A DNA stretch of 62,044 nucleotides from an uncultured Verrucomicrobiota bacterium. GTDB lineage: Bacteria; Verrucomicrobiota; Verrucomicrobiia; Limisphaerales; JAHDYP01. The position numbers and the translations under genes are program-made. The stretch is taken from the NCBI GenBank assembly GCA_964432995.1, contig CAYSPU010000001.1:2253-64296 (forward strand). Reading direction: 5' to 3'. The notes beneath the pieces were generated by a model, which was given only the letters and a program-made list of their open reading frames with translations, was not told where the DNA came from and did not search any database. This document shows, in pieces, positions 2,196-53,023 of the stretch; the first letter of the stretch is position 1; every line of letters starts with the position of its first letter.

Positions 2196-5100
2196 TCAAC
2201 GCCGGTAGGCCCGATAGAATTGCGCCGACGAACCGGCGTCCGTGGACAGGTCGAAGGGGATAACTCCGCCCACGGCCAGGTTCGTGGAGACCGGGGTCCA
2301 CCCCATCAGGTCGGTCGACGATTCGATGACGTAGGTCTGGCCGGATTCGCCGATCAACCGGAGGGTGGGCTGTTCCGCGCTTCCCACCATCTGCAGTCGC
2401 ACGGCGGATTCGGTCAGGCTCGCCAGCGGCAGCGTGAGGTTGTCCAGGTAGGCGGCATCTTCGAAGTCCTTGATGGGAGGATCGGCGAAATCCTTGGCAT
2501 AGCGCCACTCGACGGTGTTGGTGCCGGCCGGTACCACGATGGCGTAGCGCGTCCAATCCACAGCCCCGCTCCAGTTGGTTACCAGGGTCCCGTTCAGCCA
2601 GAACTGCAGGTGGTCCCAGCCTTCCTCGGAGCTGACCCGGAAATCGAACGAGAGCACGCCCGCGTCGAGTATCTCGGTCAATTGGAGCACGCTCTTCTGG
2701 CCATTCCCGATGGCGCCGGATCGGGCGGCGTACTGGCCGGTGGCCGCATTCGTGGACTGGACCCGCCAGGAGGCGTGGCTGCCGGCCGGATTCAGCGCGT
2801 AGCTCAACACGGGACTGAAGGACCCGGTCTCGAAGTCGTCCGTGAAGCTTTCCGGGGCGAAGTTCGCGACCAGGACGTGGTCCTGATCCATCAGCAAGGC
2901 CAGGGGGTTGTCGGTGGACTCGACGCTGCCGGTCCATCGGACGAAGCGGTATCCGGGAAGCGGGGTGGCCGTCAGGGTCACGGTGCTGGCCGCTTCGTAA
3001 TCGGCTTCGGCCGGGGTTGGGGCAACCGATCCCCCGGCGGTGGCGGTGACGCCGAGATGGAAGAGGGTCCGATTGGTGAACGCGTAGAGCAGGCGGTTGG
3101 TGCCGGCGCTGGCCGCATAGCCGTCCAGGGCGATGGAGTAAGTGGTCGCCGCTCGGACGCCGAGGGTGACTTTGCTGTAGCGGTTGCCCGCGATGAAGTC
3201 GTCGTTGGCCGCGACTGTGGTCAGACTGTCGACCCGGGTGCCGGTGTAGACGCCCAGCAGCGTGTCATAGCTCACGTTCGTGGTCAGCACCTGCAGCATG
3301 CCATCGGCCGGTGCGGTCCAACGATACCAGATGGAGTGTCCCCCTTCGTTGCCGGCGTGGTTGGGCTCGCCGGACTCCTTGGTCGCCCGCTGGTTGCTGC
3401 AGGCGATGGAGCCCGAGTCGCCGGTCAGTTCCAGGGCGTTGACGAAGTGATCGTTCGACGGATCCGGGGGCCAGTAATAGACGGTGGTCTTCACTGTGAT
3501 GGACTGGAGTCCGGCGTTATCGACGGCCGTGGCGTAGATGGTATTCTGGCCTTCCTGCAGCAGGAAGTTGCTCGACCACTGATCGCCGTCGAGGTCGGCG
3601 CGTTTGCCGGAGAAATCCTGGTTGATGCGGACGAGGACCTCGGCGATTCCCGAGGCGCCCGGTTGAGGATCGAAAGCCAGTCCGGTGACTTCCACGCGGT
3701 TCGTCGGGGAGATGTAACCGCTTCCGGGCCAAGTGAAGGCGGCGACGGGCGCCAGTGTGTCCGGCACGCCGTTCATTTCGACGCGCAAGCGGACGGTGCC
3801 GGTCTCTTCGTCGTCGGCGCCGCCGACGACGATGCGGTAGGTCTTGGCCGGTTCGGCCGTGAACGTGAGGTAGGCGTGCCGTCGTCCGTTGACGTCGTCC
3901 GCCGCAGCCACTTCTTTGACGTTGGCGATGTTCGTGCCGGTGTAGACCGCCACCACGGTGTCGAACGTGCTCCCCGCCGTATCGATCAAGACGGGAATAT
4001 CGGTCGAAGCGGGCGAGGACCACATCCACCACAGCGTGCTGGCCACGGTCGGATTGTCCGCGTGGAACGGCTCCTGGAACTCGATCGTCGCGTACTGGTT
4101 GTCGGAGAGAATCACCCCGCCTTCGGGCGGCACCTTGTCGGCGTGCGCGAACATGTCGTTCCCCGGGGGACTGACGATGGTGTAGCGAACGACGTTGGTG
4201 CTGGGCGTCTTTGGCGCCGGGGCTGTGACAATGACCGTGAGGATCAACTCGCTGACGTTGGTGGGGGCGACGAGCCGGCCGCTGTAGATGGCGTCTCCGG
4301 CGGCAGCGTCGGGGGCGGTGCCGTTGTTGACGAAGTTGACGGTCCCGTTGGTGCCGTAGGTGCCTTTGACGGTGGCGTTGGTCACGCTGAACATGTCGGT
4401 GACGGTCACGAAGATGTTGTTCGTGGAGCCGGCCAGGAGGACGGCGTTGTTGGGCGGGGTGATCGCCACCTCGAGTTCATTGTCGCCGACGGCGCTGAGA
4501 GCCTTGTAGGCATTGACGCGGCCTCCGGTGACGGTGATGCCGTTGAGGGCGACGGTGGGGACGACGGTCTTGAGGAGCCGCTCGCGGAGTTCGACCAGGG
4601 AGATGTTCGGGTAGTAAGCGCGGATGAGGGCGGCGACGCCGGTGACGTGGGGTGCGGCCATGCTGGTGCCCTGGTAGTATTCATAGGCAGTGGTGGAAGT
4701 GGCCACCGTCGAGTAAATGTCCACCCCCGGCGCCCCGAGATCGACCGTGGTGGCGCCGTAGTTGGAGAAGGAGGCCAACTGATCCGAACGATCGATGGCC
4801 GCCACGCTGATGATGTTGTCCAGATCGTAGTTCGCGGGGTAGGCGGGCTCTTCGTCGTTGTCCATGGCGTCGTTGCCGGCCGAAGCCACGAACAAGACAC
4901 CGGCGTCCCGGGCCGCGGCGATGGCGTCGAACTCCGCCTTCATGTAGGGGCCGCCGCCGAAACTGGCGTTCATCACCGACGCCCCGTTTTCCACCGCGTA
5001 CTCGATACCCTCGACGATGTCGGCGGATGCCAGACCGGAGGCACCGCCCACGCGGCACGCCATGATCCGAACGTTCCAATTGACGCCCACGTGGTCGTAG

Positions 5101-5861
5101 CCGTTGTTGGCAGCGGCGCCGATCGTCCCCGACACGTGGCTGCCGTGCCCGATGCTATCCATGGGATCCCCGCTGTCGTTCACGGCGTTGATGCCGAAGA
5201 CGTCGTCGACGTAGCCGTTGTCATCGTTATCGGCGCCGTCGTTGGGCACTTCGTTGGGGTTCTGCCACATCTGGGCGGAGAGATCGCGGTGGTCATAGCG
5301 CACGCCGCTGTCCACGACGGCCACAATGACGTTGGTGGAACCGACCGTGAGGTCCCAGGCGGTTTCGGCGGAGATATCGACCCCCACCACGCCGCCCTGG
5401 TCGCCGATATTGCGGAGGCCCCAGAGCGAACCATCCAGGAACTTCGCGTCCGTTGGCGTGCGGTGGAACTGCCGGATGTAGTCCGGCTCGGCGTAGAGGA
5501 AGAGGCCGGAGTCGCGCAGTGCGGCCAGCCGGCTCAGAAGGGATTCCTTGAGCTGGTCCTGGCCGGGAACGACCGCCACGGCCAGGGGAAGGCGCTGCCG
5601 GACCGGAACATCGAGAAGCACCAGACCGGAGACGCGCCGGTATTCGCGGGTCACCTCGAGTCCGATCGAACTCAGCAGCTCGCTGACGCCGGGGTCGGTC
5701 GGGCGGCGGTCCGCCTGGAGGCGGGCCAGGATTCGGGTGGGGTGGGCGTCATACCGGCCGATCTGGATCCAGGGGCTCTCTCCCTGGGCGAGCGCCCCGG
5801 GAACGAGCCCGGTCCAACCGGCCAGCAGGACCATCGGTAGCAACGTGCGCAGTCTCAACAT
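2196..5861 (-). CDS. secreted multidomain subtilisin-like serine protease (peptidase S8) with C-terminal accessory domains
   Basis: Start trimmed to the ATG at 5861 (MLRLRTLLPMVLLAGWTGLVPGALAQG signal peptide); the longer ORF would overlap the upstream gene. Asp/His/Ser triad motifs VAVVDSGV, GHGSHVSGT, GTSMAAPHVTG. Followed by two repeat modules (N..AT.E.GEP.H....S.W..W....FDT...VY.G), an InlB-B-repeat-like segment, a MAM/lectin-like segment and the shared C-terminal domain. Confidence 0.85.
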   Translation of the reverse strand: MLRLRTLLPMVLLAGWTGLVPGALAQGESPWIQIGRYDAHPTRILARLQADRRPTDPGVSELLSSIGLEVTREYRRVSGLVLLDVPVRQRLPLAVAVVPGQDQLKESLLSRLAALRDSGLFLYAEPDYIRQFHRTPTDAKFLDGSLWGLRNIGDQGGVVGVDISAETAWDLTVGSTNVIVAVVDSGVRYDHRDLSAQMWQNPNEVPNDGADNDDNGYVDDVFGINAVNDSGDPMDSIGHGSHVSGTIGAAANNGYDHVGVNWNVRIMACRVGGASGLASADIVEGIEYAVENGASVMNASFGGGPYMKAEFDAIAAARDAGVLFVASAGNDAMDNDEEPAYPANYDLDNIISVAAIDRSDQLASFSNYGATTVDLGAPGVDIYSTVATSTTAYEYYQGTSMAAPHVTGVAALIRAYYPNISLVELRERLLKTVVPTVALNGITVTGGRVNAYKALSAVGDNELEVAITPPNNAVLLAGSTNNIFVTVTDMFSVTNATVKGTYGTNGTVNFVNNGTAPDAAAGDAIYSGRLVAPTNVSELILTVIVTAPAPKTPSTNVVRYTIVSPPGNDMFAHADKVPPEGGVILSDNQYATIEFQEPFHADNPTVASTLWWMWSSPASTDIPVLIDTAGSTFDTVVAVYTGTNIANVKEVAAADDVNGRRHAYLTFTAEPAKTYRIVVGGADDEETGTVRLRVEMNGVPDTLAPVAAFTWPGSGYISPTNRVEVTGLAFDPQPGASGIAEVLVRINQDFSGKRADLDGDQWSSNFLLQEGQNTIYATAVDNAGLQSITVKTTVYYWPPDPSNDHFVNALELTGDSGSIACSNQRATKESGEPNHAGNEGGHSIWYRWTAPADGMLQVLTTNVSYDTLLGVYTGTRVDSLTTVAANDDFIAGNRYSKVTLGVRAATTYSIALDGYAASAGTNRLLYAFTNRTLFHLGVTATAGGSVAPTPAEADYEAASTVTLTATPLPGYRFVRWTGSVESTDNPLALLMDQDHVLVANFAPESFTDDFETGSFSPVLSYALNPAGSHASWRVQSTNAATGQYAARSGAIGNGQKSVLQLTEILDAGVLSFDFRVSSEEGWDHLQFWLNGTLVTNWSGAVDWTRYAIVVPAGTNTVEWRYAKDFADPPIKDFEDAAYLDNLTLPLASLTESAVRLQMVGSAEQPTLRLIGESGQTYVIESSTDLMGWTPVSTNLAVGGVIPFDLSTDAGSSAQFYRAYRR

Positions 5862-5944
5862 GGCAACAGCTTTCACCAGCCCGCACTTCCCCTCCGGTGC
5901 CAGCCCCGTGCGGGGAAGCCCGGCTGCCGGGTCGCGCGCGGCCG

Positions 5945-8809
5945 TTACGGGTTGTATCGAACGCGGTAGTAACGGCTGGACACACCCTCGGGCAGGACGT
6001 CTTCCGCCTCGAGCGTTCGCATGAACGCCTCCGGGTTGGCCACCGTGGCAATGACCTCCCATTCGCCAGCGGCCAGATCCGTCGTCATCTCCACCACATA
6101 CGTCGTCTGGGGCGCCGCCATCCACTGGATTGTAGTCTTGGAGGCGGGGGCCGTGCCGACGATCGCCTGGACCTCCGGCTCGGCGAAGGGATAGGGGTCG
6201 TAGCCGTTGGCCAGGCCGTCGCCGTCGGAATCGATCGTGATGCTCTCGCGCAAGCCCTTGTTGATGCGGACGGTTCGGCCGGAGGGCATGAGCACATCCA
6301 CCGAACTCCGCGGACCGGCGAAGTCGCGGACCCAGCGGAACCGACCGCCGAGCGCGCCGTCGAGTTCCTCGACCGGCGTGCTGCTGGGGGCGTAGGCAAA
6401 GTAGATCGTCACGTTGGGATCCACCTCGAACACCGACTCGAGGTTGCCGTTCCGATACGCGTCAAGGACATACCCCTGGAACTCGAGGTAGTCGACGTAG
6501 AGCGCGTAACGGCCCTGGGTGTTCAATCCGCGCAACTGCTGGAATCCGCTCTGGCCCGCGCTCAGCAAAAGGCTCCCGAGGGCGACGTTGTTGGTGAAAC
6601 CGTCGACCGTGGCGCCCCGATCCTCGGCCGCCCACTGATGCTCGATCCAGGCGAAGCGCGGGGCGGTGGACTGCACGGCAGTGCCCAGGAGATCGCCATA
6701 TTGTGGCTTGCGCAACATCACCAAGCCGTCCGCCGGCACCAACATGTTCCCGGCAGCCCAACCACTATCCGCCAAGGAATTGGTCACGCTCAAGATCAGC
6801 GATCCGCTGGTCTGATTCGTGAATTGGTTCAGTTTGAGGTCGTTGACCGCAAGGGTGACATCCGCGCCCGCGCTCAGGCGCCCATGCTGGAACTTGCCCA
6901 ATTTGCCCTCCAGCGCGAACGCTCCGTCGGCCTGGATCCGCCCGGAATTCTCGAAGTAGTCGGAGCGAACGCGCATCGCATTGGCATCGACGGTCCCGCG
7001 GTTGACAAAGGTGGAGTAGGGTTTCGCGCGGTCCTGACCGAAGTTGGCGGTGTTGGCGATGTAGAAGTAGCCTTCGTTGGTGAGGAACCGCAACCGCGGG
7101 GCGTTGGTAACGGCAAAGTGCCCGTCTCCGCCGCTGAAGGTGAGATCGCCCTTGAGGGTGACGGTCTCCGCATCCAACAGGAGAGGACCCACCGCCCGGA
7201 CATTGTCCTCGACGACCACGTTGGTGCTATGGACGGAGAACCCGTGCGTCTGCACCTCCCGGACGATCCCCAACTGCTGGCCATCGACGACGAACGCGTG
7301 GAACTGGAGATCCACGGTGTTGGTGGCGACGTTGGTGATCATCGTGCCCGGGTTGGCCGGGTCTTCCTCGACGTTCGTCGTGGTCGTCCCCGACTGGTTG
7401 GTCCAGGTGGCGCTCCAGAGGAAGACATAGCCGTCGAACCGGGTGATGGTGTCCGGGGTGATGTCGCGGATGAGGAGGTCGCCGCTCGCCGAAGTGAGGT
7501 TGAAGACGAGGTTGGGGGCGTCGATGTAGGTGCCGGAGGTGTCGCTCACGTCGCCGGTGGATTCGATGCGGATCGAGGAATTGCCCCGCAGCCGGGCGTC
7601 GCGGAGGTCGACTGTCCTGCCGGAAATCTCGATCCGCCCGGGGAGGTCGATGACCGATGCCCCCTCCACGCCCGTGGCATCGAGTGCGCCACCTTCCACG
7701 TACGGCGAGTAGGCCGACCAAAAGATGTCCACCGTCTGGTTCGAGTAGGCTTGATTGGAGAATAGATCCGAGGTCAGGGGCGCGTTCCCGAGGTCGCCAT
7801 CCTCGAACACCTGGAGCGGCGACAGTCTGACGCGGTAGTTGCGCGAGCGGTATGTGGACTTTGTGTCCATGCTGTTGAGCAACACGAGGTTCGTGTAGGC
7901 GCCCAGCGCATCGCTGATGTAGAGGGTCTCCGTGCGGATGGTGCCGTCGATGGAGTTGGTCATCGGCATGGTGAACTCGGCGCTGATGATCTGCAGCCCG
8001 GTCTCGGAGCCGAGGGAGCTGAAGCGGATCCGCGAGGCCAGCATGTTCGTGTCATAGCCCACGAAGGCCGCCTGGATGATCTGGTTGGTCTCCGTCAACG
8101 CGTTGGTGTAGGCTCCGACGGTGGTGGTCTGGAACCCGATCCGGCTTGTCCCCCACCCGAAGGGGTCTTCCACACGGTGCGCGGGGGTGATCACGCTGAC
8201 CGAGAACGGATCGTTCTGCACGGTGACGAAGTTCGGGAGGTTGAGGGTGGCGTTGGTCAGGCCGCCCCAGTAATTGTCGTAAATGCCGGTCGCCGGGGTG
8301 AAGTTCGTCTCGGTAACGCTATCCGAATCACCGAAACCTCCGGTGATGGTCGGGCGGACTTCGAGGCGGCTGTGGCGGACGTCGACGCCCTGCCCCTGCA
8401 GTTCGAGGAGGCCCGAGGCGCCGACGCTGAGCAACCCGCGGTTCTGGATGTTGGCCGCATTGACGATGAGGTGACTGGAGACGCTCACCTGAGCGCCGCT
8501 ATCGTTGACGAAACTGGTGGCGGGACGGGGGGCCTGGGTCGACGAGGCGGTCTGGAAGAAGAACCCCGGGTTGCCGCTCATGACGCCGTGGTTGGTGAAA
8601 TGGAGCGTGCTCTGAAAGTCGTAGGGAAGAGCTGTCGACACGTAGAACGTGCCGTAATTGATGAACGCCGTGGCATCGATCTGCGGCGGGGGGTAATCGT
8701 TCATCACGCCCTGGTTGATGTAGACCGGCTGCGTGGCCGCCTGGGCGGCGACGAGGAGGGCGGCGCCGGCCCCCAGACCCGGAAAGACGTTCTTCATAGG
8801 ACTGCTCAT
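5945..8809 (-). CDS. large secreted hypothetical protein, probably beta-helical, with a DSDGDG calcium-type motif and the shared C-terminal domain
   Basis: 954-aa ORF with a signal-like N-terminus (MSSPMKNVFPGLGAGAALLVAAQAATQ). Asn/Gly/Thr-rich repetitive body. C-terminal DSDGDGLANGYDPYPF, then TTYVVEMTTDL..GEWEV...YYRVRYNP. No catalytic motif recognised. Confidence 0.6.
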   Translation of the reverse strand: MSSPMKNVFPGLGAGAALLVAAQAATQPVYINQGVMNDYPPPQIDATAFINYGTFYVSTALPYDFQSTLHFTNHGVMSGNPGFFFQTASSTQAPRPATSFVNDSGAQVSVSSHLIVNAANIQNRGLLSVGASGLLELQGQGVDVRHSRLEVRPTITGGFGDSDSVTETNFTPATGIYDNYWGGLTNATLNLPNFVTVQNDPFSVSVITPAHRVEDPFGWGTSRIGFQTTTVGAYTNALTETNQIIQAAFVGYDTNMLASRIRFSSLGSETGLQIISAEFTMPMTNSIDGTIRTETLYISDALGAYTNLVLLNSMDTKSTYRSRNYRVRLSPLQVFEDGDLGNAPLTSDLFSNQAYSNQTVDIFWSAYSPYVEGGALDATGVEGASVIDLPGRIEISGRTVDLRDARLRGNSSIRIESTGDVSDTSGTYIDAPNLVFNLTSASGDLLIRDITPDTITRFDGYVFLWSATWTNQSGTTTTNVEEDPANPGTMITNVATNTVDLQFHAFVVDGQQLGIVREVQTHGFSVHSTNVVVEDNVRAVGPLLLDAETVTLKGDLTFSGGDGHFAVTNAPRLRFLTNEGYFYIANTANFGQDRAKPYSTFVNRGTVDANAMRVRSDYFENSGRIQADGAFALEGKLGKFQHGRLSAGADVTLAVNDLKLNQFTNQTSGSLILSVTNSLADSGWAAGNMLVPADGLVMLRKPQYGDLLGTAVQSTAPRFAWIEHQWAAEDRGATVDGFTNNVALGSLLLSAGQSGFQQLRGLNTQGRYALYVDYLEFQGYVLDAYRNGNLESVFEVDPNVTIYFAYAPSSTPVEELDGALGGRFRWVRDFAGPRSSVDVLMPSGRTVRINKGLRESITIDSDGDGLANGYDPYPFAEPEVQAIVGTAPASKTTIQWMAAPQTTYVVEMTTDLAAGEWEVIATVANPEAFMRTLEAEDVLPEGVSSRYYRVRYNP

Positions 8810-8849
8810 GAGGCGAAATGGGCTGTTCGCATTGCGGGTGGTACCGGTG

Positions 8850-10343
8850 CTACGGCGTGCCGCCGGTCGTCATACCCGTATCGGTCGTGTTGGTTCCCAC
8901 GCTGGGGGGTACCTCCCAGGCACTGCCCTGCGCCCGCTTGAAGGCGCGCTCCGTGATGTCCCGCATCGTGATACCCGCCGGGTACAGGACCGGCTCGTTG
9001 GTGGTGCCGTCGAACGATCCCCAGAACAGATACCGTGTCGCCGAAGCTTCGTCGAGGTTGTCCAGCGGGAACGTGTTCACGAGGATCTCGTTGACTCCGT
9101 TCAACTCGACGGTGAGGGCCGGGCCGCCGTTGCCTGGCGGGATGTTCCCTGGTCCGTAGTTGCCGGTGATTCCGTTGGTGCCGTCGTTGTTGACCCAGGC
9201 TTGGTTGAGGGTGGTCCCGAAAAACGGCACGGCTTGGTCGCCGTCCCCGCCCTGGAGGTCGCGGACATTGAACAGGATGTCCGGGGCGACGACCGGGCGC
9301 TCGAGGTATTGAGTGATCTCCTGGCGGTTGGAGATCACCGTGTCCGGGAACGTGTTGGTGAAGGCCTCGAAGAGCCCGACCATGGAGTCGTAGTCCGCCC
9401 GGACGAAGGTGACCTTCCCGATGCCGGAGCGGATACCGTTCGCGATGAAGGTGTTGGTCCCCGTGGTAGTCGCGTTGGTTCCCGTGGTGTTGGTGCCGGC
9501 GGGAACACTCCACGGGTTGCCGCCGGTGAGGCTGAGGGTGGCGTTGGCGGGCGGAGTCTCCACGTTCCAGTTGTTGCGGTCGTAGAGGTACTTCAGGCCC
9601 ATCACGTCGTCCCGCGTCAGTCCGGTCCAGAAACCGAGTGCCGAGAACTGAACCCCGGCCACCGGCGCATTCACGGCTCCGTCGTACAGGGCCAGAGGGT
9701 CCACCGGCGCAGTCACGACCCACGAAACGCTGCCATCACGAATGTCCGACACCCGGTCGTAGGTCCACAACACGCCGTTGATGTAGGAACTCGCCTGATA
9801 CCTCTTGGTGGCGGGGACGTACTCGAAGTTGCGCCGGATGATATGGAAGTTCGTGGTCCCGCCGGGGTCCGGCGTCGTCCAGCGGTTGCGCAGCGTGTAG
9901 ACGTAGCGGGTCGGGTCGGTGAGCCCCAATTCCTCGAGGGCGACGGAGAGGACGACCGATTTGAGATCGGCGATCCCCAGCGCAACTGCCTGGTGGTTGA
10001 GGCGCAGGGACGTGAGCGGGTACTTGTCGACGTCGATCGAGGTGACATCGGGAAGGCTGTTCAAGATCTTGAAGGCCTTGTCGATCTCCTGGATGCCGCG
10101 CTGCCCGAAGTAGGTCACGAAGTCGGGGGTGAAGCCGTAGTAGACGGTATCGACATTCCAGCGATACTCCTCGCCGAGGTTCATGGGGCCGCCACCGAGT
10201 TGGGCGTTGTAGTCGGGAGGAAGGTAGCCCAGGCGCGCCGTCATCCAGGTGGTGAGCGGTCCCTGGAGGGTGAAGGCAAAAGCTGAACCGCACCAGCCGG
10301 TCAGGGCCGCCAGCACCAGAAGCCGTTTCAGAAAGCGTAACAT
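8850..10343 (-). CDS. secreted hypothetical protein
   Basis: The ORF-track start at 10352 is GTG. I prefer the ATG at 10343, giving MLRFLKRLLVLAALTGWCGSAFA (a clean signal peptide). GC3-rich coding pattern. No family recognised. Lacks the shared C-terminal domain. Confidence 0.6.
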   Translation of the reverse strand: MLRFLKRLLVLAALTGWCGSAFAFTLQGPLTTWMTARLGYLPPDYNAQLGGGPMNLGEEYRWNVDTVYYGFTPDFVTYFGQRGIQEIDKAFKILNSLPDVTSIDVDKYPLTSLRLNHQAVALGIADLKSVVLSVALEELGLTDPTRYVYTLRNRWTTPDPGGTTNFHIIRRNFEYVPATKRYQASSYINGVLWTYDRVSDIRDGSVSWVVTAPVDPLALYDGAVNAPVAGVQFSALGFWTGLTRDDVMGLKYLYDRNNWNVETPPANATLSLTGGNPWSVPAGTNTTGTNATTTGTNTFIANGIRSGIGKVTFVRADYDSMVGLFEAFTNTFPDTVISNRQEITQYLERPVVAPDILFNVRDLQGGDGDQAVPFFGTTLNQAWVNNDGTNGITGNYGPGNIPPGNGGPALTVELNGVNEILVNTFPLDNLDEASATRYLFWGSFDGTTNEPVLYPAGITMRDITERAFKRAQGSAWEVPPSVGTNTTDTGMTTGGTP

Positions 10344-10352
10344 AGAGATCAC

Positions 10353-12302
10353 CTAGCGAATGCGAATCACTCGATACATGGACACACTCTGCGCACCGTC
10401 CACGGGGATGGAATCGGTGGTTCCGGGAGCGAATCGTTGGGCGCCCACATCGGTCCACGAGCCGAGATTGGAGCTGACCTGGACTTGATAGACGCCGCCG
10501 GGCTGGACATTCCAGTCGAGCCACCATCCCTGGGTGCTGGCCTTCATCTCGAGGCGCATCACGCTGTTGGGGTCGGCGGGGTTGGTGCCGGCCAGGAGTT
10601 CGGCCAGGTTGGAGGCGCCGTCGCCGTCGGTGTCATCATCTTTTCCCGGAGGCTGGGCGGTGAGTTCGGGCCAACTGCTGGCCTGCCAATCGTCAGGGAG
10701 CCCGTCGCGGTTGCGGTCCAGGCCCCAGGTCCGGCCGGTGGCCGCGGTGGACACCTCAGACCGGCTGCCATCGACCAACCGGTAGGCGAGGCGGAAGGTG
10801 TGCTGGCTGGCGGGCATGAAGTTCTCCGCCAGATAGTGGGTCCCCTGCACGTCCACCGGAGTCGTGGCGCCGTCGATATACAGCTCGTACGCCGCGATGT
10901 CATAGCCGGTCACCTCGGCCCAGGTCACACTGAGTTCGGTTTCGCTGACGGCGAAGGCAAACGGCGCGGCCGGCGCGGCCAGCGGCACCGCCGGGGCGAG
11001 GGCGACGCGCTGGGCGAAGAGGTCGAAGCTCCCCTCGCCGCCCGTGAAACTGGTCCAGGTCACGACGCACGCGTCCTGGGCATCCGAGGCGACCGCGGGG
11101 TGCATCTGTTGCATAGCGGTGGTCGTGTTGACGAACACTTCGCCACCCGCCGGCCCGTTGGCTTCGACCGCCCGCCCGCAGACGCCTTCATACGATCCGT
11201 CCTGGCCAACCGTGGTCCAGACGGCGAAGAACCGGCCGCCCACCCGGGCGAGGCGCGGCGCGTACTGATCTCCACGGAGGCGGGTGTTGATGGTGAACTC
11301 GGCCGAAAGGGGCGTGCCATCGGCCTGGAGCAACCGCCCGTAGACGTCCCAACGATCGGTGGACTGAGCGCCCACGGGCAGTTGGGCTTTGCGTCCGCTG
11401 TAGGCAACCAGCATGCTGCCATCCTCGGCCACGCTGATCGCCGGGTTCGCCGCCAATACGGCGCTGGAACTGACCTGGAACTCATCGCCCTCGGGCTCAC
11501 CGGTGGCGGAGAAGCAGCGCGCCAGGATGGCGACGTCGTGGAGCGGGACCCCCGCATCGGAACCGGAGTAGCCACCGGTCGGGGTGGTATCAAAAACGGT
11601 CTGGCCGAGAGGGCTCTCGCAGACCCAGGCGACGAGGAACCGGCCCCCGGGCAACCCGGCGACGGTGGCAGAGCGCTGGTTGAACTCGGTGTATTGGTTG
11701 ACGGCGAACTCGGCGCCGACCTTCTGGCCCGTCGCGCTGAAGCGCTGTCCGTAGACGCCGAGCATACTGCCGTCCTGGCCGAAGCTGTTCCAGACTACCA
11801 CGGCGCCGCCGTCCTGGAGGGTGGCGACGGCCGGTTCGATTTGAAAGCCACCGGCGTAGGTGTTCACCTGGAGGTCGGCCGACCGGAAGGTGCCGTCCGG
11901 TTTCACGAACCGCGCGTAGATCTTCTGCTTGCCATTGGCGCCACCCTGCCAGACGAAGGCCGCGCCGCCATCCTGCAGGACCGCCACCTGGGGCTTCTCC
12001 TGGTCGGCGGTTCCCACCGAATTGACGCGGAAGACGCCGAGGACGCCGCTGAGTCCGGCGTCGACGCGGCGGGCGCTGATGCCGGTGCCGTCGCCGTCGG
12101 TGGCGTTATCGTGCCAGACGACGTAGCCGCCGCCGGCGCCGAGGCTGACGTGCGGGAAGACCTGGTCGCCTCGGAGGGGACTGGTCATCCGGAACTCGGC
12201 TCCTTGGCGGGCGAAGGTGCCGGCGCCGAGGCTGCCGCCGGCCAGCAGAAGCGCACTGCAGCAGAGGGGGACCCACCTAACTCGACTCAAAAGCAACGTC
12301 AT
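10353..12302 (-). CDS. secreted repeat protein: seven propeller-like repeats, an FN3-like domain, a DTDGDG motif and the shared C-terminal domain
   Basis: Start trimmed to the ATG at 12302 (MTLLLSRVRWVPLCCSALLLAGGSLGAG). Seven units of pattern Q..P.VA...DGG..VVW....DGS..GVYG.RF...G. Then an FN3-like segment (ELSVTWAEVTGYDIAAYELYIDG), DDDTDGDGASNLAELLAGTNPADPNS, and tail ...GVYQVQVSSNLGSWTDV...MYRVIRIR. Confidence 0.65.
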   Translation of the reverse strand: MTLLLSRVRWVPLCCSALLLAGGSLGAGTFARQGAEFRMTSPLRGDQVFPHVSLGAGGGYVVWHDNATDGDGTGISARRVDAGLSGVLGVFRVNSVGTADQEKPQVAVLQDGGAAFVWQGGANGKQKIYARFVKPDGTFRSADLQVNTYAGGFQIEPAVATLQDGGAVVVWNSFGQDGSMLGVYGQRFSATGQKVGAEFAVNQYTEFNQRSATVAGLPGGRFLVAWVCESPLGQTVFDTTPTGGYSGSDAGVPLHDVAILARCFSATGEPEGDEFQVSSSAVLAANPAISVAEDGSMLVAYSGRKAQLPVGAQSTDRWDVYGRLLQADGTPLSAEFTINTRLRGDQYAPRLARVGGRFFAVWTTVGQDGSYEGVCGRAVEANGPAGGEVFVNTTTAMQQMHPAVASDAQDACVVTWTSFTGGEGSFDLFAQRVALAPAVPLAAPAAPFAFAVSETELSVTWAEVTGYDIAAYELYIDGATTPVDVQGTHYLAENFMPASQHTFRLAYRLVDGSRSEVSTAATGRTWGLDRNRDGLPDDWQASSWPELTAQPPGKDDDTDGDGASNLAELLAGTNPADPNSVMRLEMKASTQGWWLDWNVQPGGVYQVQVSSNLGSWTDVGAQRFAPGTTDSIPVDGAQSVSMYRVIRIR

Positions 12303-12450
12303 AATTCCTGACTCTCTCAGGTCATTCACCGAGGTTGACCAACTATAGCACATGAACGCCCCAAATTCCCTGCCCCCGCCCCGGGAGCGTGCGGGAAGCC
12401 CGGTTGCCACTTCCCACACCCAACCCCGCGGGCCGAGGCCGCCGGCCCGA

Positions 12451-15204
<2,754 letters not shown>

Positions 15205-15249
15205 GGTTCGCTCAGGTTTGGGTTGGCACACCATAGAAATTCGCATTGC

Positions 15250-16068
15250 CTATATGCCGGCGGGGGCAGCGCCAGAGGGCGCTTTGATAGAGATCGTCGT
15301 CCGCTTCTTGTTGGACAGGGCCTCGACTGTAACGTTCGTCGACGTGATGGCAACGATATTGTTGGTATCTCCACCAAAACTCAGATTGTCGAGCACGCGC
15401 TTGCCGTTGAAGTTCAGGTTTTCCGGCGGGTACTTCAAGTCAGCCATGTAGCCCGCGACCGCTTCGTGGGGCTTCTCTTTAGACACGACCACCACGCTTT
15501 TGTCATCCCGAAGTTCCAGGACGAATTCGGTGGGGTTCTTGCCGTCGGGACGCAGTTCCCGGAGGACGAAGATCTCGTTCTGTGATCCGGGAACCGGCAG
15601 GCTCTGATGCATCTTCGGCAGGCGGTTCCGGGGTTCGCGCTCGGCCTCGCGAGTCACGCGGAAGTTGTGGAACAGGCCCGTTCCCGACGGCGAGGTTCCC
15701 TCGTAGGAGATGATGGTGTTGAGGGGCTTCAGGGCAACGATCACCAGGGCCGGTGCGCCTTCGACCACCGTCCCCTCCTTGCGCACGGATTCCGAGCGGC
15801 GGGTCCACTTGACGGGGTTGAACAGGTTGTGGTCACCCGAGAGGATGACGGGTTCCGGTCGGCGGAGGCGGCGGAGGACCGTTTCGTTGGTGGAGAGATC
15901 GAAAGGCTGCAGCTCCTTGTTCTCGCGAGACACATCCATGTCGGCAAGTTCCTCCAAACGCTGCCGCTCGCTCGATATTTGGAAGAGGAGTTGGAGGGTG
16001 GCGGCCAATAGTCCCAGAAGAACGAGACTGAGAATGACCTTCTCGTAGTTTTTCTTGAGGAAATCCAT
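15250..16068 (-). CDS. bitopic membrane protein of the pilus-like locus (in the position of Amuc_1099; PilP-like role possible)
   Basis: 272 aa with a single N-terminal TM (VILSLVLLGLLAATLQLLF). Sits between the secretin and Amuc_1100-like genes with gaps of 45 and 16 nt. No motif recognised. Confidence 0.55.
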   Translation of the reverse strand: MDFLKKNYEKVILSLVLLGLLAATLQLLFQISSERQRLEELADMDVSRENKELQPFDLSTNETVLRRLRRPEPVILSGDHNLFNPVKWTRRSESVRKEGTVVEGAPALVIVALKPLNTIISYEGTSPSGTGLFHNFRVTREAEREPRNRLPKMHQSLPVPGSQNEIFVLRELRPDGKNPTEFVLELRDDKSVVVVSKEKPHEAVAGYMADLKYPPENLNFNGKRVLDNLSFGGDTNNIVAITSTNVTVEALSNKKRTTISIKAPSGAAPAGI

Positions 16069-16084
16069 TGAAGCGAATGCGGCG

Positions 16085-17185
16085 TTATTTGGCAGCCACG
16101 GCCCCCTGGCGAATCGAATCCACGAGCATGGTGATCCTGAGAAGCTGCTCGTTCAACATCGTCTCCGGCCCTCGCCGCGTCGAGACTCCGGGTGTCTGGT
16201 AGGTTGATTCGGTCGGAGCCCCCGGGGTGACGCCTCCCGCCGGGCCCAGGCCATAGCGACGTCGCATCGCATCCGACATTCCGGCCCCGGGTCCCCGTTC
16301 CCCTCGGCCGGTAAGACCGTAGCGCGAGCGCAGCCGGTCGGCCGGGCTCTGGCCGCCGCCCGGGAGCACGCCACCGGCAGGAGGCGCATAGTAGGGCGCT
16401 GGCGTCTGACCGGGCTCCGTCGAGTCCGGAGTGGTCAGGTCGCTGGATGGCGCACGCTCCACGTTGACGTTCTTGACAACGAAACAACAAGGGGAGCGCA
16501 GGAGGCCGTCGATCACCGCCCCCAACTCGCTGCTGAACCCGTAGAAGGTGATTTCGTAGGGGGTCACCGCCGCCCCGGCGACCTGGTTGGTGTAGGACTT
16601 GCGGAAGGTCAGGAGTTCCGGGCCCTGTTCCTTCTTGCTGACCGGGGGCCGGCGGAGGCTGACCAGGGAATGCACCCGGGCCTCGAACACGGCCGACACG
16701 ATCGCGCGGATTTCGAGGAGCTGGTAGCTCAGGGGGACCAACTCCTTTGCGTCGATCGCCGTGGCGCTGTACTGGGAACCGAAGGTGAACGCATAGGGCC
16801 CCCCGGTGACGGAAGGGGCGGGGATCTTCACCCCCTGCTTCCTGGCCATCTGCTCCAGTTCGAACACCGTCGTCGCCAACTGGCCCTTGAAGGTGGCCGT
16901 GTCGATGTTCGTCTGGGTGGAAAGCGGAGCGAAGAATTTGCGGGCTTCACCCAGGGCCGAGAGCATCCGCGTCTGCTCCTGCCGGGCCGCGGTCACGTTT
17001 TCCTCGGTAACGCTGGGGTCCTGAGTGTTGAGACGCCGGAACGCATCCGCCTGCGTCGTCAGTTCAGCCGTCACGTCCGAGTTTCGCGAGTATTGCCGGT
17101 AGAGGAAATAGCCGGCTGCGCCGAGCAGGACCACGGCTGCAAGAATCCCGCCCGCCAGGACCAAATTGCGCTTGAGCCACGACAT
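16085..17185 (-). CDS. Amuc_1100-family / PilO-like pilus-associated protein
   Basis: N-terminal TM (LVLAGGILAAVVLLGAAGYFLY). Architecture and local resemblance, from memory, to Akkermansia Amuc_1100: the TATFKGQL...ELEQMARKQGV region, the FVVKNVNVERA strand and a terminal beta strand. Locus context also fits. Confidence 0.6.
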   Translation of the reverse strand: MSWLKRNLVLAGGILAAVVLLGAAGYFLYRQYSRNSDVTAELTTQADAFRRLNTQDPSVTEENVTAARQEQTRMLSALGEARKFFAPLSTQTNIDTATFKGQLATTVFELEQMARKQGVKIPAPSVTGGPYAFTFGSQYSATAIDAKELVPLSYQLLEIRAIVSAVFEARVHSLVSLRRPPVSKKEQGPELLTFRKSYTNQVAGAAVTPYEITFYGFSSELGAVIDGLLRSPCCFVVKNVNVERAPSSDLTTPDSTEPGQTPAPYYAPPAGGVLPGGGQSPADRLRSRYGLTGRGERGPGAGMSDAMRRRYGLGPAGGVTPGAPTESTYQTPGVSTRRGPETMLNEQLLRITMLVDSIRQGAVAAK

Positions 17186-17204
17186 AGGAGAGGGTGTGAA
17201 AAGG

Positions 17205-19241
17205 TTATCTCTCTGAAGGAGCGGAGGCTGACTCGGTCGACTCGGTCGCCCCGGCGGACTCGGTGCCCTCCGTCGACTCCTCGGTCGGGGCCCTGGGGAT
17301 GGCCCCTGGCGGGTTGAGGATCACGGGGTTCTTGAGCCGGAGGCTGACTCCGAAGGTGAAGGTGTCCCCGTCGTCCTTGAACTCGCCGGCCAGCTTGGTC
17401 TCTTCGGGATCGACCATCGGGCTGGCTTTCAGCGTGTCGAGGAAGGTGAAGGCCAGGTCGTTGTTCGCCTTGGGATCCATCGACAGCTTGAGATGGTTGA
17501 CCCCCCGGCAGGTCATTTTGATGACCGCGATTTCGTTGGTGGAAGTCTTCTTCCCCTTCGGCTTGCGGACGACCGGTGTTCCGTCCTCGTTGACCGCGCC
17601 CTCTTCGCCTCCCTCGCCCTCCGACTCCGAGTCGTCGCTGGTGGGGGTTCGGATCGTCTTGATTCCGTAACGCTCCCGGAGCAGCTTGGCGTAGCGCATC
17701 TGAACGGCGGTGGGCGTGGTGGGGGTGCCTTCCGCGGTCGCTTCCGTTTCCGAGGCCTGCGCGGTGAGGATCGGATTCGCCGCGGCAAAGGACTCAATCC
17801 ACAGGCCGTTCTCGATGCCGCCCATGGCCTGTTTGCGGGCTTCTTCGGTGGCGATGAGGACGCGGCGGAGTTCGGCCAGCAAGTCGGGCCACTGGAGGCG
17901 TTCCTGGGCCCAGGCCTGCAGTTGCTGTAATTCGGATTTCTGCCGGTCCAGGCCCGAGAGTTCGGTTCTCAACCGGCGATCGCGCTCACTGATCGGCTGG
18001 ATCTTCCGGCTGATTGTCTCGAGGGCTTCGCCCTTGATCGCCGCGAGCTTGGCGTAGAACCAGCCGTAGGCCGCAACGACGAGCACCAGGCTGATCACCG
18101 TGGCGATGAAATAGGGCTTCTTCTGGTTGAGTTCCTGCCGCTTGAGCCAGCTCCGCGGCATGAGGTTCATCTCCACCGGGCATTGCGCCACGTTCCGCAA
18201 GCCGAGGCCGACGATTTCGCCGAGGGAATGAGCCACGGCGGCCAGTTCCTCCCGGTTCACGGACGGGCCGATCTCGACATTGCGGAAGGGGTTGAAGTAC
18301 TCGACCGCGATATTGAGCTTCTCGGCGAAGAACTGGGCGGTATACGGCATGATGGCCGCTCCGCCGGCGAGGAAGAGCCGCTGGGGCGGGGTGCCGCCCT
18401 GCTGGCCGCGGAAGAACTGGATGGTCTGGTTGACCTGGATGTGCAGGCGGGTCATCACCTGCCGGGCGATTTTGGAGATCTGGGCTTGCCGCGGGTTCTC
18501 GGGCTCCTCGTAGGCGCCGCCGAGGCTGACGAAGCCCTCGGCGATCTTGAGCTGTTCGGCCTCCGCGAACCGCAGTTTGGCTTCGCTGGCGAAGTCCTGG
18601 GTGATGGAGTTGGCCCCGATGTTGATGCTGCGGGCGTAGACCTTACCCTTGTCGAAGAAGAGGAGGTTGCTGGTCTTCGCGCCGATGTCCAGCAACATGG
18701 AACAACCTTCCAGATCGCTGTAATTGAACCGAAACGCGTTGCACAGCGCCGCGGGCGAGACGTCCACCAACTGCACGCGGAAACCGGAGGCTTCCGCCGT
18801 GCGGAACAGGCCTTCCACGACGTCCGTCTTGATCGCGACCAGCAGGACTTCCAGCTCTCCGGACGGCGACGTCCCCAGGATCTGGTAATCCCAAACGACT
18901 TCCTCGAGCGGGAACGGCACGTTCTGCTGCGCCTCGTATTGGATGATCTGGGTGACCTTGGAGGAATCCACCGGGGGCAGCTTGACGAATTTCGAGAAGA
19001 CGTGGAACCCCGGGGCGCAGGCGTTGACGCTCTTCGAGCTGAAGGGGCGCTCGGCCAGGAGTTCCTGGATGACCCGGTTGATGACCCGCTCTCGAGCCAC
19101 ATCCTGCGAACCCTCAAAACCCAGGGGCTTGATCCCGAACTCCTTGAGGCGGATGACTCCGGACTCAGTCGGCTCGAACTCCGCGATTTTCAGGCTGCCG
19201 GCGCCGAAATCCAGGCAAAGGAATGACTTCGTGTTCAGCAT
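17205..19241 (-). CDS. pilM: type IV pilus assembly ATPase-fold protein PilM fused to a PilN-like TM/coiled-coil region and a C-terminal extension
   Basis: N-terminus FLCLDFGAGSLKIAEF, then GANSITQD and FLAGGAA actin-like/PilM motifs. TM segment YFIATVISLVLVVAAYGWFYA near aa 375. Acidic low-complexity stretch SDDSESEGEGGEEG, then a roughly 120-aa terminal domain. Confidence 0.8.
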   Translation of the reverse strand: MLNTKSFLCLDFGAGSLKIAEFEPTESGVIRLKEFGIKPLGFEGSQDVARERVINRVIQELLAERPFSSKSVNACAPGFHVFSKFVKLPPVDSSKVTQIIQYEAQQNVPFPLEEVVWDYQILGTSPSGELEVLLVAIKTDVVEGLFRTAEASGFRVQLVDVSPAALCNAFRFNYSDLEGCSMLLDIGAKTSNLLFFDKGKVYARSINIGANSITQDFASEAKLRFAEAEQLKIAEGFVSLGGAYEEPENPRQAQISKIARQVMTRLHIQVNQTIQFFRGQQGGTPPQRLFLAGGAAIMPYTAQFFAEKLNIAVEYFNPFRNVEIGPSVNREELAAVAHSLGEIVGLGLRNVAQCPVEMNLMPRSWLKRQELNQKKPYFIATVISLVLVVAAYGWFYAKLAAIKGEALETISRKIQPISERDRRLRTELSGLDRQKSELQQLQAWAQERLQWPDLLAELRRVLIATEEARKQAMGGIENGLWIESFAAANPILTAQASETEATAEGTPTTPTAVQMRYAKLLRERYGIKTIRTPTSDDSESEGEGGEEGAVNEDGTPVVRKPKGKKTSTNEIAVIKMTCRGVNHLKLSMDPKANNDLAFTFLDTLKASPMVDPEETKLAGEFKDDGDTFTFGVSLRLKNPVILNPPGAIPRAPTEESTEGTESAGATESTESASAPSER

Positions 19242-19403
19242 CTAGTGACTCCGATGCGCCGCGGTGAACAGCATCCCGCTTTTCCGTCAGGCCTGTTGAT
19301 CTCCGGCGAGGAGAGAGTCGACCCGTGGTTACTGGAATTCGCCAGCACGGTCAAATAGAAAAGCGAAACGCGACCGCCGCGACTCTGCATGATGTTTGTT
19401 TCC

Positions 19404-20417
19404 TCAATATGCCTCCCCCGACAACCTTTTCCGAAACCAGTCGATGGTGGGCGGAAGCCCCTCGGCCAATCCCACTTTTGGCACCCAACCCAGCCAACGG
19501 CGCGCCCGCGCAATGTCCGGCCGCCTCTGCCGCGGATCATCCTGCGGAAGAGGTCGGAACACGATCCGACTGCGCGAGCCCGTCACCCGGATGATCTCCC
19601 GCGCAAACTCCAGCACCGTCAACTCCTGGGGGTTCCCCAGGTTGGTCGGAAGGTGGATCGCCGACATCATCAGCCGGTAGATCCCCTCCACCAGGTCCTG
19701 GCAGTAACAGAAACTGCGGGTTTGCGCGCCTGTCCCGAAGACGGTGATCGGGCGGTTGGCCAGTGCCTGGCCGACAAACGACGGCACCACCCGGCCGTCC
19801 CTCATCCGCATCCGCGGACCGTATGTGTTGAAGATGCGCACAATCCGGGTCTCGACGTTGTGCTCCTTATGATACGCCATGGTGAGCGCTTCGGCAAAGC
19901 GCTTGGCTTCGTCGTAGCACCCCCGGGGGCCGATCGGATTGACGTTTCCCCAGTAGTCCTCCGTCTGCGGATGGACCAGCGGGTCCCCATACACTTCGGA
20001 GGTCGAAGCCAGGAGGAAGCGGGCGCCCTTGTGCTTGGCCAGGCCGAGAGCCTTGTGGGTGCCCAGGGATCCCACCTTGAGTGTCTGGATGGGGAGTTCG
20101 AGATAGTCGATCGGACTGGCCGGGGAGGCGAAATGCCAGACGAAATCCACCGGGCCCTGGAGGAAGAGGAACTCCGTGACATCCTGCTGAATGAACCGGA
20201 ATCGGGGGTTGCCGGCCAAGTGGGCGATGTTGTCCACGGTGCCGGTCACCAGGTTGTCGATCGCGATGACTTCGTGCCCGCGCTCGAGCAGGAGGTCCAC
20301 CAGGTGAGAGCCCAGGAAACCCGCGCCGCCCGTCACGACCGACTGGGGAGCGCGCTGATGCGCCGGACGCGGCCGCCGCCGCGTCGACCGGGAGGTTGGT
20401 TTCAGAGGACGACCCAC
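19404..20417 (-). CDS. UDP-glucuronate decarboxylase (UDP-xylose synthase), SDR family
   Basis: [18 protein letters not shown] Rossmann motif, [11 protein letters not shown], catalytic [16 protein letters not shown]. The start is GTG at 20417 and uncertain; the basic N-terminal extension may not be translated. Confidence 0.85.
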
Positions 20418-20433: not shown

Positions 20434-21822
20434 TTATTTCGCTCCGGTGCCGAGCATCACCACGGGGACCGTCTGCAGCAGGATCCGCAGGTCCAGCCAG
20501 AGTGACCAGTTGTCGATATACTGCAGGTCCAACCGCACCCACTCCTGGAAGTCGGTGATGTTGTTCCGACCGCTGATTTGCCAGAGACAGGTGATGCCCG
20601 GCTTGACGCTCAGCCGTCGCCGGTGCGCCAGGTCGTCGAAACGCGCCACCTCGTCCAGGGGCAGCGGCCGGGGTCCCACCAGGCTCATGTCGCCCCGCAC
20701 CACATTCAGCAACTGCGGGAACTCGTCGATGCTGTATTTCCGCAGCAGGCGTCCCACCCGGGTGATCCTGGGATCGTGACTCACTTTGAAGACCGGGCCG
20801 CTCATCTCGTTGAGCAGCTCGAGTTCGTGTTTCCGCTGCTCGGCATCGCTCACCATGGAGCGGAATTTCAACATGGTGAACGGCCGGCCGTTCAATCCCG
20901 CCCGCTGCTGCCGGAAGAAAACCGGGCCGGGAGAACTCAACTTGATCAGCACCGCGGCCAGAACCAGCACCGGCGATGACACCACCAGCAACAGCAGCGC
21001 CCCCGTCAGATCCATCGTCTGCTTGGCCAGAACCTGCCACGAAGCCCCGGGCGCCGACCGAAACACCAGCATCGGCATGCCGTGAAAATCGTCGATCGTC
21101 GTCTGCGAAATCTGGGTCTTGAAGAAATCCGCCGTGAGCCAGACCTCGACACCTTCCAGCTCGCAGGCGGCAATGACCTTTTCCACGTTGCCGAAGAACG
21201 TGTGCTTGGCGCTCAGCAGGACGCTGTTGATGGCGTGCTCATGCATGAGGTGGACCAACCGCTCGACCGGAACCTCGTTGAGATCCACCTCCGCCACCAC
21301 CTCCGTGCTCTCCGCCGAATGCTCGTGCAACTGCGAGCGGAGCTGGGCCCGGTCCGCCTCCGTTCCCACCAGAATCAGCCGGCGCCGCAACTGCGACTGC
21401 CCGATGCTGCTCCGAATCCAGGACCGGAGCAGCTCCTCCTTGGCCAGGATCAACAGATACGCGATGGGGCCAAACAGCAAAATCACGCCACGAGCCGGCT
21501 GCGCCCGGGTGAGAAACACCACCGTCACCACCGCCATGGTCACCCAGACCATCCCCCACCAAAGCTGCCACAGCGTCTGCCTCCGCGATGGGATCAACGG
21601 CCGGTTGTAAAAGCCCTGCAATTGCAGAAACAGGGGCGCTATCGGGAGGATCACCAGCAACAGCCACGCGTAGTCGCCAAACTCCTGAATGTCCGGACGC
21701 AACAGGAAATCGAACAGCCCGTGAGCTCGCAGCCAGTGCGCCCACCAGAAGCTGAACGCAAAAATGGTGGCGTCGACAAACCTCTGCGCTTGGGAAAGCA
21801 CCTGTCTCTGGCGACGCAACAT
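20434..21822 (-). CDS. polyprenyl glycosylphosphotransferase (WbaP/EpsB-like sugar transferase)
   Basis: Start trimmed to the ATG at 21822 ([17 protein letters not shown]...). Four to five N-terminal TMs. C-terminal bacterial sugar transferase core: [61 protein letters not shown]. Confidence 0.88.
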
Positions 21823-21928
21823 TGGGAAGACACTCTGCTTCAGCCGCCCGGGTCTCGGCAAACCCAAAAAGCGGGCAGCCGGCCTACGGGCAGATCGATC
21901 ACCCGCCCGCTGACCCGTCATCCGCCGC

Positions 21929-21984
21929 GCCGACGTGCCGACGTGCCGACGTGCCGCCGTGCCGACGTGCCGACGTGCCGCCCC
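21929..21984. repeat. tandem 8-nt repeat GCCGACGT, six good units plus degenerate flanks
   Basis: Read directly: gccgacgt gccgacgt gccgacgt gccgccgt gccgacgt gccgacgt gccgcccc. Lies in the divergent spacer between the sugar transferase (start 21822, minus) and the ketosynthase (start 22058, plus). Confidence 0.9.
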
Positions 21985-22057
21985 TCCTGAAGGGACTGGT
22001 TTGACTCGGGCAATCCACCTTCCGTAAGCTCGGAGCCGACATCGACGCGAAGCCCCA

Positions 22058-27990: not shown

Positions 27991-28176
27991 AGCGGCCGCC
28001 TTTCTCCGGCGTTCGGCGAGCGTTGTCAATGCCGGCCCACCAGCACGGCACAACCCGAACCGGCGGCCAAGACGGCCAGCGTCGTCGGGGGCGCATCCAC
28101 CATCGCGCCAGCGTCACTGATCGCACCTTCCGCGTTCAGGTTGCACACGTGGCGCCGTGGCTGGTAGGTTCGGCGC

Positions 28177-29226: not shown

Positions 29227-29234
29227 AGGAGACC

Positions 29235-31385: not shown

Positions 31386-31445
31386 ATCACCGTTTCTGAC
31401 GCCTGCTCGGACGCGTCCCGCCCTTGAGAGAGGACAGCAGCCAAA

Positions 31446-31530
31446 CATCCAACGCCCAGCATCGAACTTCGAACATCGAACGGTGGCAGCGGTGCAACGT
31501 CCGATGTTCGGTGTTCGACGTCCGACGTTG
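31446..31530. repeat. TCGAAC-rich long imperfect hairpin element, copy 1
   Basis: The left arm catcgaacttcgaacatcgaacg pairs with the right arm cgtccgatgttcggtgttcgacg around the loop gtggcagcggtgcaa. It is an inverted copy of the element at 33019-33110. Confidence 0.75.
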
Positions 31531-31676: not shown

Positions 31677-31726
31677 AAGAAGCCGTTTCCGAACCATTGG
31701 TTTCCGGCGCGATGCGGAGACCTGCT

Positions 31727-52993: not shown

Positions 52994-53023
52994 ACTCGGC
53001 GTGAGGTTCGGGGCACTTCGACT

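Follow-up and report, generated by a model that had tools for sequence, protein, structure and literature searches.

A secretin module of the Akkermansia MUL2 type is followed by a conserved operon for three secreted proteins in Limisphaerales

Introduction

Is a secretin that has no pilin or motor genes beside it part of a pilus, or is it an outlet for the large proteins encoded directly downstream? This question is raised by a stretch of 62,044 nucleotides (nt) from an uncultured bacterium of the Verrucomicrobiota (contig CAYSPU010000001.1, positions 2,253 to 64,296), which is called the window in what follows. Its GC content is 65% and the source reads as an environmental member of the Limisphaerales/Pedosphaera group. 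On the minus strand of the window, genes for a PilM-fusion protein, two bitopic proteins and a secretin (12451-19241, together called the module) are followed by genes for three secreted proteins, A, B and C, and for a protease, D. A first-pass annotation had read the module as a pilin-less and ATPase-less exit pore for these four exoproteins.

Our analysis gives a probability of about 0.5 to A, B and C being dedicated partners that use this secretin, judged from gene order and homology. Export of the three proteins through it is plausible. What is new at this locus is that the module is almost invariably accompanied by a compact operon for secreted proteins, three in number, and that two of these are true orphans; the module itself is of a known kind.

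Conservation of the A-B-C operon

Protein A (649 aa, 10353-12302), protein B (497 aa, 8850-10343) and protein C (954 aa, 5945-8809) are encoded one after another on the minus strand; their lengths come out as 649, 497 and 950 aa when genes are called independently on a metagenome contig that is identical. A protein identical to B occurs in sample 3300010353 of the Joint Genome Institute (JGI) and on an NCBI contig of 64,296 bp. B, which has a signal peptide and an orphan domain, was used as the marker of the triad. A search of GTDB with one genome per species, for which an alignment of B alone was used, found relatives of B in at least 412 species genomes, and the best 80 loci were examined. 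Each of the 80 belongs to an assembly of its own, which means that a second copy was not encountered, and nearly all of them are labelled Verrucomicrobiota, Limisphaerales or Pedosphaera. All synteny counts given here take only those loci whose contig reaches far enough.

Gene order around B is essentially fixed. All loci scored have A directly upstream of B (75 of 75) and C downstream of it (75 of 75). Farther upstream the secretin gene is found in 64 of 65 loci, the genes for the 272-aa and the Amuc_1100-like proteins in 47 of 47, and the gene for the PilM fusion (pilMN) in 45 of 45. The sole exception for the secretin is L085, where the contig is short and genes upstream of A are duplicated. 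The genes share one strand, no break of order occurs among the 80 loci, and the median gaps of 8 nt between A and B and 24 nt between B and C are those of a tight operon. In the loci L001-L005 and L089 the orthologs of A, B and C are 24-52% identical to the window proteins. In five relatives that were reached through the secretin (48-67% identity), the secretin is followed immediately by one-to-one orthologs of A, B and C, their order unchanged. Conserved adjacency of secretin and exoproteins, which the first-pass annotation had made a condition of its reading, holds in all relatives examined as far as A, B and C are concerned; a counterpart of the fourth exoprotein, D, is found in 29 of 55 loci.

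A distant module, with a secretin that is 29% identical, has the same four core genes and no A-B-C. In Akkermansiaceae coaE is reported to stand next to the secretin gene (PMC13174399). On these two grounds synteny shows the triad to be a clade-specific addition at the 3' side of the secretin gene.

The secretin module

Homology shows the region 12451-19241 to be the form that the MUL2-type envelope module of Akkermansia (Amuc_1101-1098) takes in Limisphaerales. The gene order from Amuc_1101 to Amuc_1098, which the earlier reading had given, proved correct, both by matches to the Amuc families and by the same four-gene order in relatives. The Amuc cluster is called 'type IV pili' or the MUL2 locus in the literature, and no outer-membrane protein of A. 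muciniphila is more abundant than the Amuc_1098 secretin (PMC4960237).

The PilM-fusion protein (pilMN, 678 aa, 17205-19241, minus) matches PilM_2 (PF11104) with 129 bits (2.5e-37) and the pilM model TIGR01175 with 155 bits, above the cut-off of 133. It also matches Amuc_1101_fam (NF045709) at 3.9e-142 over residues 1-462, with 475 bits against an equivalog cut-off of 650. An actin-like cytoplasmic PilM part is followed by a transmembrane helix at about residues 376-398 and by a periplasmic tail, and the protein is 50-68% identical to its counterparts in relatives. Regarding the PilM-PilN fusion proposed earlier, the PilM half is secure by the curated cut-off; the PilN half is suggested by the helix and the periplasmic tail, and no PilN model matched it in the family-model search.

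At the position of PilO or GspM stands a bitopic protein of 366 aa (16085-17185, minus) with an N-terminal transmembrane helix and a tail rich in Pro and Gly. It matches Amuc_1100_fam (NF038287) at 5.2e-19, with 68.8 bits under a cut-off of 180, and its orthologs in relatives match Amuc_1100 of Pfam (PF28028), while the counterpart in the distant module has a weak match to GspM. The next protein, also bitopic and of 272 aa (15250-16068, minus), occupies the position of Amuc_1099, PilP or GspC. None of the Pfam and NCBIfam models matched the window copy; its 45 orthologs gave weak matches, in 20 cases to Amuc_1099_fam (best 2e-4) and in 2 cases to pilP_fam. As read from the sequence, each of the three inner proteins has a single transmembrane helix in the expected place. 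The PilO model matched no protein of the module, and a PDB sequence search gave no match for the 366-aa protein, the 272-aa protein or the profile of the 272-aa family.

The secretin (12451-15246, minus) has Secretin (2.6e-30) and TPR_2 domains and belongs with Amuc_1098_fam (NF042912, 2.5e-97). It scores 120 bits with the PilQ model TIGR02515 and 151 bits with the GspD model TIGR02517, below the cut-offs of 284 and 351, respectively, and no N0 domain was found in it. Since relatives align from residue 15, the true start is probably Met15 (15204) and not 15246; this is probably also why an exact look-up of the secretin sequence found nothing. At about 13674-13908 the gene encodes a tract of about 80 residues that are almost all Gly, with Met and Tyr. 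The tract separates the TPR region at the N-terminus from the secretin core and gives rise to long spurious Ala-rich open reading frames (ORFs) in the other frames.

All three Amuc scores of the window proteins lie below the NCBI equivalog cut-offs, which makes the module proteins relatives within these families and not equivalents. The four proteins look like the alignment subcomplex and the secretin, i.e. the scaffold and the pore, of a type IV filament machine.

Pilins and motors

What drives such a machine is not encoded in the window. That no pilin, GspE/PilB/PilT or GspF/PilC is present in these 62 kb had been noticed before, and three approaches agree on it. A Pfam scan of every called gene of the window found no T2SSE, T2SSF, N_methyl or pilin family; tblastn with GspE, GspF, GspG, GspH and PilT of relatives against the window gave a best E of 0.3; and the prepilin motif G-F-T-L-x-E is missing from every ORF of the window in six frames. 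These searches cover nearly all of the source contig of 64,296 bp. Beyond the window the label 'pilin-less, ATPase-less' is not established, since motors are normally encoded apart from such modules and since PilT and a prepilin adjoin the locus in two relatives. In Pseudomonas and other model organisms, operons of the pilMNOPQ type are normally separate from pilB, pilC, pilT and the pilin genes. In L025 a gene for PilT lies 306 nt upstream of pilMN (TIGR01420, 423 bits, cut-off 319), and in L073 a PilA-like prepilin, above the cut-off of TIGR02532, is encoded about 5 kb downstream of C.

L003 has genes for GspE, GspF and GspG divergently upstream of pilMN. We rejected them as the motor of the module: homologs of this GspE with 83-90% identity belong to complete operons of the type II secretion system (T2SS), which include GspH, J, K, M and C as well as an N0-type GspD of their own. 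The set in L003 thus belongs to an ordinary T2SS nearby. The window is without any GspE-K gene.

In its strict form the first reading makes the module an autonomous pore, a new kind of exit for exoproteins that works although the whole genome lacks pilins and an ATPase. This would agree with the failure to find motor or pilin genes in the 62 kb, with their absence within 10 kb of the module in most relatives, and with the finding that the sole GspE/F/G set adjoining the module is a canonical T2SS. Nevertheless we consider it highly improbable. The cytoplasmic PilM domain has been kept, at a score above the curated pilM cut-off, and such a domain makes little sense if there is no cytoplasmic motor; PilT and a prepilin occur near the locus in two relatives, and model organisms normally encode pilMNOPQ away from their motors and pilins. 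For the same reasons we infer, as the more economical reading, the scaffold of an ordinary filament machine whose motor is encoded elsewhere.

The secreted proteins

Sec signal peptides are found at the N-termini of A, B and C. A consists of propeller-like repeats with weak similarity to GH43, FN3, calcium-binding TSP3 repeats and a C-terminal domain; its FN3 was the sole match when the profiles of A, B and C were searched against PDB sequences. B has no match in Pfam, NCBIfam or PDB sequences, and its family comprises 1591 clusters at 50% identity in an environmental protein library. AlphaFold models B with a pLDDT (predicted local distance difference test) of 84 and a pTM (predicted template modelling score) of 0.83, and the model has no PDB fold neighbour (best E 0.36). 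Weak local matches of B to folds like that of matrix metalloproteinases were set aside, as B lacks both an HExxH motif and an invariant histidine. C is likewise without a Pfam, NCBIfam or PDB sequence match. Its long region looks like a beta-helix by eye, and it has a DSDGDG motif that resembles calcium-binding ones. Two-partner secretion of the FHA (filamentous haemagglutinin) kind was considered for C and set aside: the protein has no Pfam match, and no gene of the Omp85 type was found in the locus. Of 38 orthologs of C, one has a marginal match to Fil_haemagg. D (1221 aa, 2196-5861, minus) is a subtilase (Peptidase_S8, 1.4e-55) with Flg_new_2.

The C-terminal domain that had been described as shared is indeed present on A (10356-10574, with the motif Y.v..S.dL..W ... 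FYRv), on C (5948-6172) and on D (2199-2414), all on the minus strand; B does not have it. The last ~75 residues of A, C and D match no Pfam or NCBIfam model, the C-terminal domain (CTD) of the type IX secretion system (T9SS) and PEP-CTERM having been considered, and the tail contains no transmembrane helix. A model built from the five copies in the window predicts an Ig/FN3-like sandwich (pLDDT 75), for which there is no significant fold neighbour in the PDB (best E 0.05, generic Ig/FN3-like).

The module might instead capture polysaccharide and bring it into the periplasm, a 'selfish' uptake of the kind proposed for MUL2 of Akkermansia. A retractile filament would pull the substrate through the secretin, as in DNA uptake, and A and C would be the glycan-binding surface parts. 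Two reports speak for this: MUL2 genes are reportedly needed for the accumulation of mucin inside Akkermansia (PMC12418764), and homologous loci are linked to fucoidan uptake and Pedosphaeraceae to selfish uptake of laminarin (PMC13174399, PMC12418764). The ATPase beside pilMN in L025, PilT, is of the retraction type, the window is rich in glycan enzymes (GH43, 3-keto-disaccharide hydrolase), and the propeller of A is weakly of the GH43 type. On the other hand, no carbohydrate-binding module and no catalytic family was detected in A, B or C, and the slot after C usually holds proteases and not glycanases. To our knowledge, DNA is the only substrate whose import through a secretin has been demonstrated. 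We therefore regard polysaccharide uptake as distinctly improbable at this locus.

Dedicated partners or neighbours

Several observations weigh against A, B and C being dedicated partners of the secretin, and the first concerns the junction between them. In the window, 148 nt (12303-12450) separate the secretin from A and contain a GC hairpin (GGGCCG-7 nt-CGGCCC, 12430-12448) directly 3' of the secretin stop codon. The hairpin had been mentioned earlier as a possible interruption of transcription. Its presence is beyond doubt, but it has no T-run and hence no U-tract in the transcript, the terminator scan did not call it, and we reject it as an intrinsic terminator. In 32 of the 80 species, and in L089, the same strand carries a housekeeping gene for a 5'-3' exonuclease between the secretin and A. 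The enzyme is a stand-alone one, like the N-terminal domain of Pol I or Xni (for example at 7102-8040 in L018 and 13141-14037 in L089), and its gene is missing from the window. Its insertion accounts for the gaps of about 1 kb between the secretin and A in relatives. It means that the junction can be interrupted and points to A-B-C as a transcription unit of its own.

About 40 nt before the start of A, the gap in the window also contains the element TGcTATAGT (12341-12349, minus). It resembles an extended -10 box, went unreported in the consensus scan and could serve A-B-C as an internal promoter.

Secondly, the module and the triad are not the only genes that stay together here. Of unrelated genes, UXS lies upstream in 25 of 43 loci and coaE downstream in 30 of 52, so adjacency alone is weak evidence, and the region may simply rearrange rarely, regardless of function. 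Only 29 of 55 loci have the fourth exoprotein, the S8 protease D, and its place is a variable protease slot: in L089 the gene after C (20860-22406) encodes a protease of the M36 fungalysin type with Glucodextran_B and Flg_new_2 in place of the S8 subtilase, the accessory domains being alike and the catalytic class different.

Thirdly, the C-terminal domain does not single out proteins encoded beside the secretin. It also ends two giant proteins of the window (38760-43418 and 43360-47808, minus), which are encoded 25-35 kb away by adjacent genes. Both of these are secreted, are about 1480-1550 aa long and contain He_PIG, RibLong and PKD-like domains. In relatives the C-terminal domain is found on other genes as well. 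In about ten loci the tag is exchanged or lost. C, and sometimes A, then has an unrelated tail, F.G.LLQk...G.GyFL...SG.V, which replaces the FYR-type tail on C in L004, L030, L035, L038, L049, L053, L059 and L069 and occurs on A, too, in L004, L030 and L038; in L053, L069, L049 and L025 protein A ends right after the propeller. Given its presence on distant giant proteins and its exchange or loss in relatives, the C-terminal domain is a genome-wide tag that large surface proteins carry in general and can exchange, and it is not private to this secretin. Such exchange hints at a general export or anchoring route. Finally, relatives own a complete and separate canonical T2SS (gspE-F-G-H-J-K-M-C-D) with its own secretin, and this system could export A, C and D instead.

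If these observations are taken at face value, A-B-C, and D where it is present, would be ordinary Sec-exported surface proteins that leave the cell by the T2SS or by the route of the tag. Their adjacency to the module would then come from a slowly rearranging backbone that runs from exosortase, sugar transferase and UXS through the module, the exonuclease, A-B-C and the protease to coaE. The exonuclease at the junction, the frequent company of UXS and coaE, the latter reportedly adjoining the secretin gene even in Akkermansiaceae (PMC13174399), the complete T2SS in relatives and the tag on unlinked giant proteins are all in line with this. We nevertheless hold mere neighbourhood to be rather unlikely. 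The adjacency of A-B-C is essentially invariant (75/75 and 64/65), whereas UXS, coaE and D are found in only ~55-60% of the loci; strand and order are kept without a break although the secretins are only ~40-65% identical in the best-matching segment; and none of the 80 loci shows B and C in a different context. It is this difference in constancy that favours A, B and C as dedicated partners of the secretin.

Comparison with known systems

The closest known system is the MUL2 locus of Akkermansia (Amuc_1098-1102), which has the same four proteins in the same order, and coaE is found downstream in both. The loci also differ. The Akkermansia locus carries the pilin-like Amuc_1102 (MUL2A), whereas the window, like the relatives, has no gene there, as only 162 nt (19242-19403) lie between pilMN and UXS. 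Here, in addition, three orphan secreted proteins and a protease are encoded between the secretin and coaE.

With PilMNOPQ of type IVa pili (Pseudomonas, Myxococcus, Thermus) the module shares the PilM domain and a secretin domain in one operon, encoded apart from motors and pilins; three bitopic proteins or segments stand in the order expected of PilN, PilO and PilP. It differs in that PilM and a PilN-like part are fused, as in GspL, and in that the secretin has an N-terminal TPR region instead of AMIN domains and stays below the PilQ cut-off. The equivalents of PilO and PilP are recognisable only through the Amuc families, and a non-pilin operon is attached.

Secretin machines with substrates encoded next to them are well known: pulA adjoins the pul genes in Klebsiella and sslE the gsp genes in E. 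coli, and type IVb pili secrete TcpF or CofJ. These cases resemble the locus in that genes for Sec-dependent exoproteins neighbour a secretin machine of the type IV filament class, and the mode of export proposed here is the same. Compared to a canonical T2SS, the module has no GspE-K genes and no GspD of the N0 type, and relatives carry the T2SS separately; and the candidate cargo is not a known enzyme but three conserved orphan proteins.

A possible mechanism

If A, B and C are dedicated partners of the secretin, export might proceed as follows. The scaffold would not function by itself, and its ATPase or ATPases, platform protein, prepilin peptidase and pilin-like subunits are probably encoded elsewhere in the genome. 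A, B and C would enter the periplasm via Sec, and A and C would then cross the outer membrane through this secretin in the manner of a T2SS, driven by a short pilus or pseudopilus. At the cell surface A and C would act as dedicated cargo or as an adhesin or fibre, while B, which is untagged, may stay with the machine. D and the other proteins of the protease slot would be interchangeable passengers, and the C-terminal domain would serve as a general tag of surface proteins and not as a signal for this pore.

A more specific version is possible, but we think it unlikely: a scaffold of the PilM-N/O/P/Q type may have been re-tooled for three Sec-dependent orphan proteins, instead of or besides a pilin-like subunit such as MUL2A. 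Equally tentative is the corollary that the propeller protein, the protein without a solved fold neighbour and the fibre-like protein might form the extracellular working end, either as cargo or as a device for capturing glycans.

Neighbouring genes

The gene map was made from third-position GC and ORF analysis. It has an unbroken minus-strand run from a sugar transferase (20434-22419) and a UXS-type epimerase (19404-20417) through the module and A-B-C-D to coaE (dephospho-CoA kinase, 1557-2195), which anchors the locus downstream, and a truncated glgB. The coordinates, the order and the gaps of 148, 9, 40 and 83 nt that the first-pass annotation gave for these genes were reproduced by the ORF analysis; its count of eleven genes from pilM to glgB was not, and we count ten.

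In the relative L005, too, coaE is found downstream (19449-20042). In Pseudomonas this gene follows pilD, and the linkage of coaE with type IV pilus genes is old and unexplained. At the other end of the locus, genes for the exosortase EpsH/EpsI precede the sugar transferase, UXS and pilMN in L002 (1665-3488), in L089 (1722-3404) and in a JGI contig; the window has the transferase and UXS, and there is no exosortase at the corresponding place.

Two other groups of genes in the window can be mentioned. The stretch 28168-34305 is a patch for glycan degradation that encodes a GH43 enzyme, a second protein that is weakly GH43-like and a protein of the 3-keto-disaccharide hydrolase family. At 51965-56255 there are three tandem genes of the family of the D-component of 2-hydroxyglutaryl-CoA dehydratase and one for an activator ATPase of the BcrAD/BadFG type; their called boundaries overlap.

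Conclusions

Links to mucin foraging and to the effects of Akkermansia on its host have made the Amuc_1098-1101 (MUL2) module a subject of active study. Our results show that a whole sister group of environmental Verrucomicrobiota has retained this module, with genes for three secreted and unannotated proteins beside it. These proteins, A, B and C, are thereby concrete, testable candidates for its cargo or its outer components, and two large orphan families are brought to attention, one of them with a confidently predicted fold that has no solved relative.

If the link between the module and the triad is only positional, the locus would still be a useful example of how conserved synteny can mislead. 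If the scaffold has indeed been re-tooled to handle A, B and C, this would put a name to the outer components that are missing in the MUL2-type system and would define two new protein families tied to a secretin.

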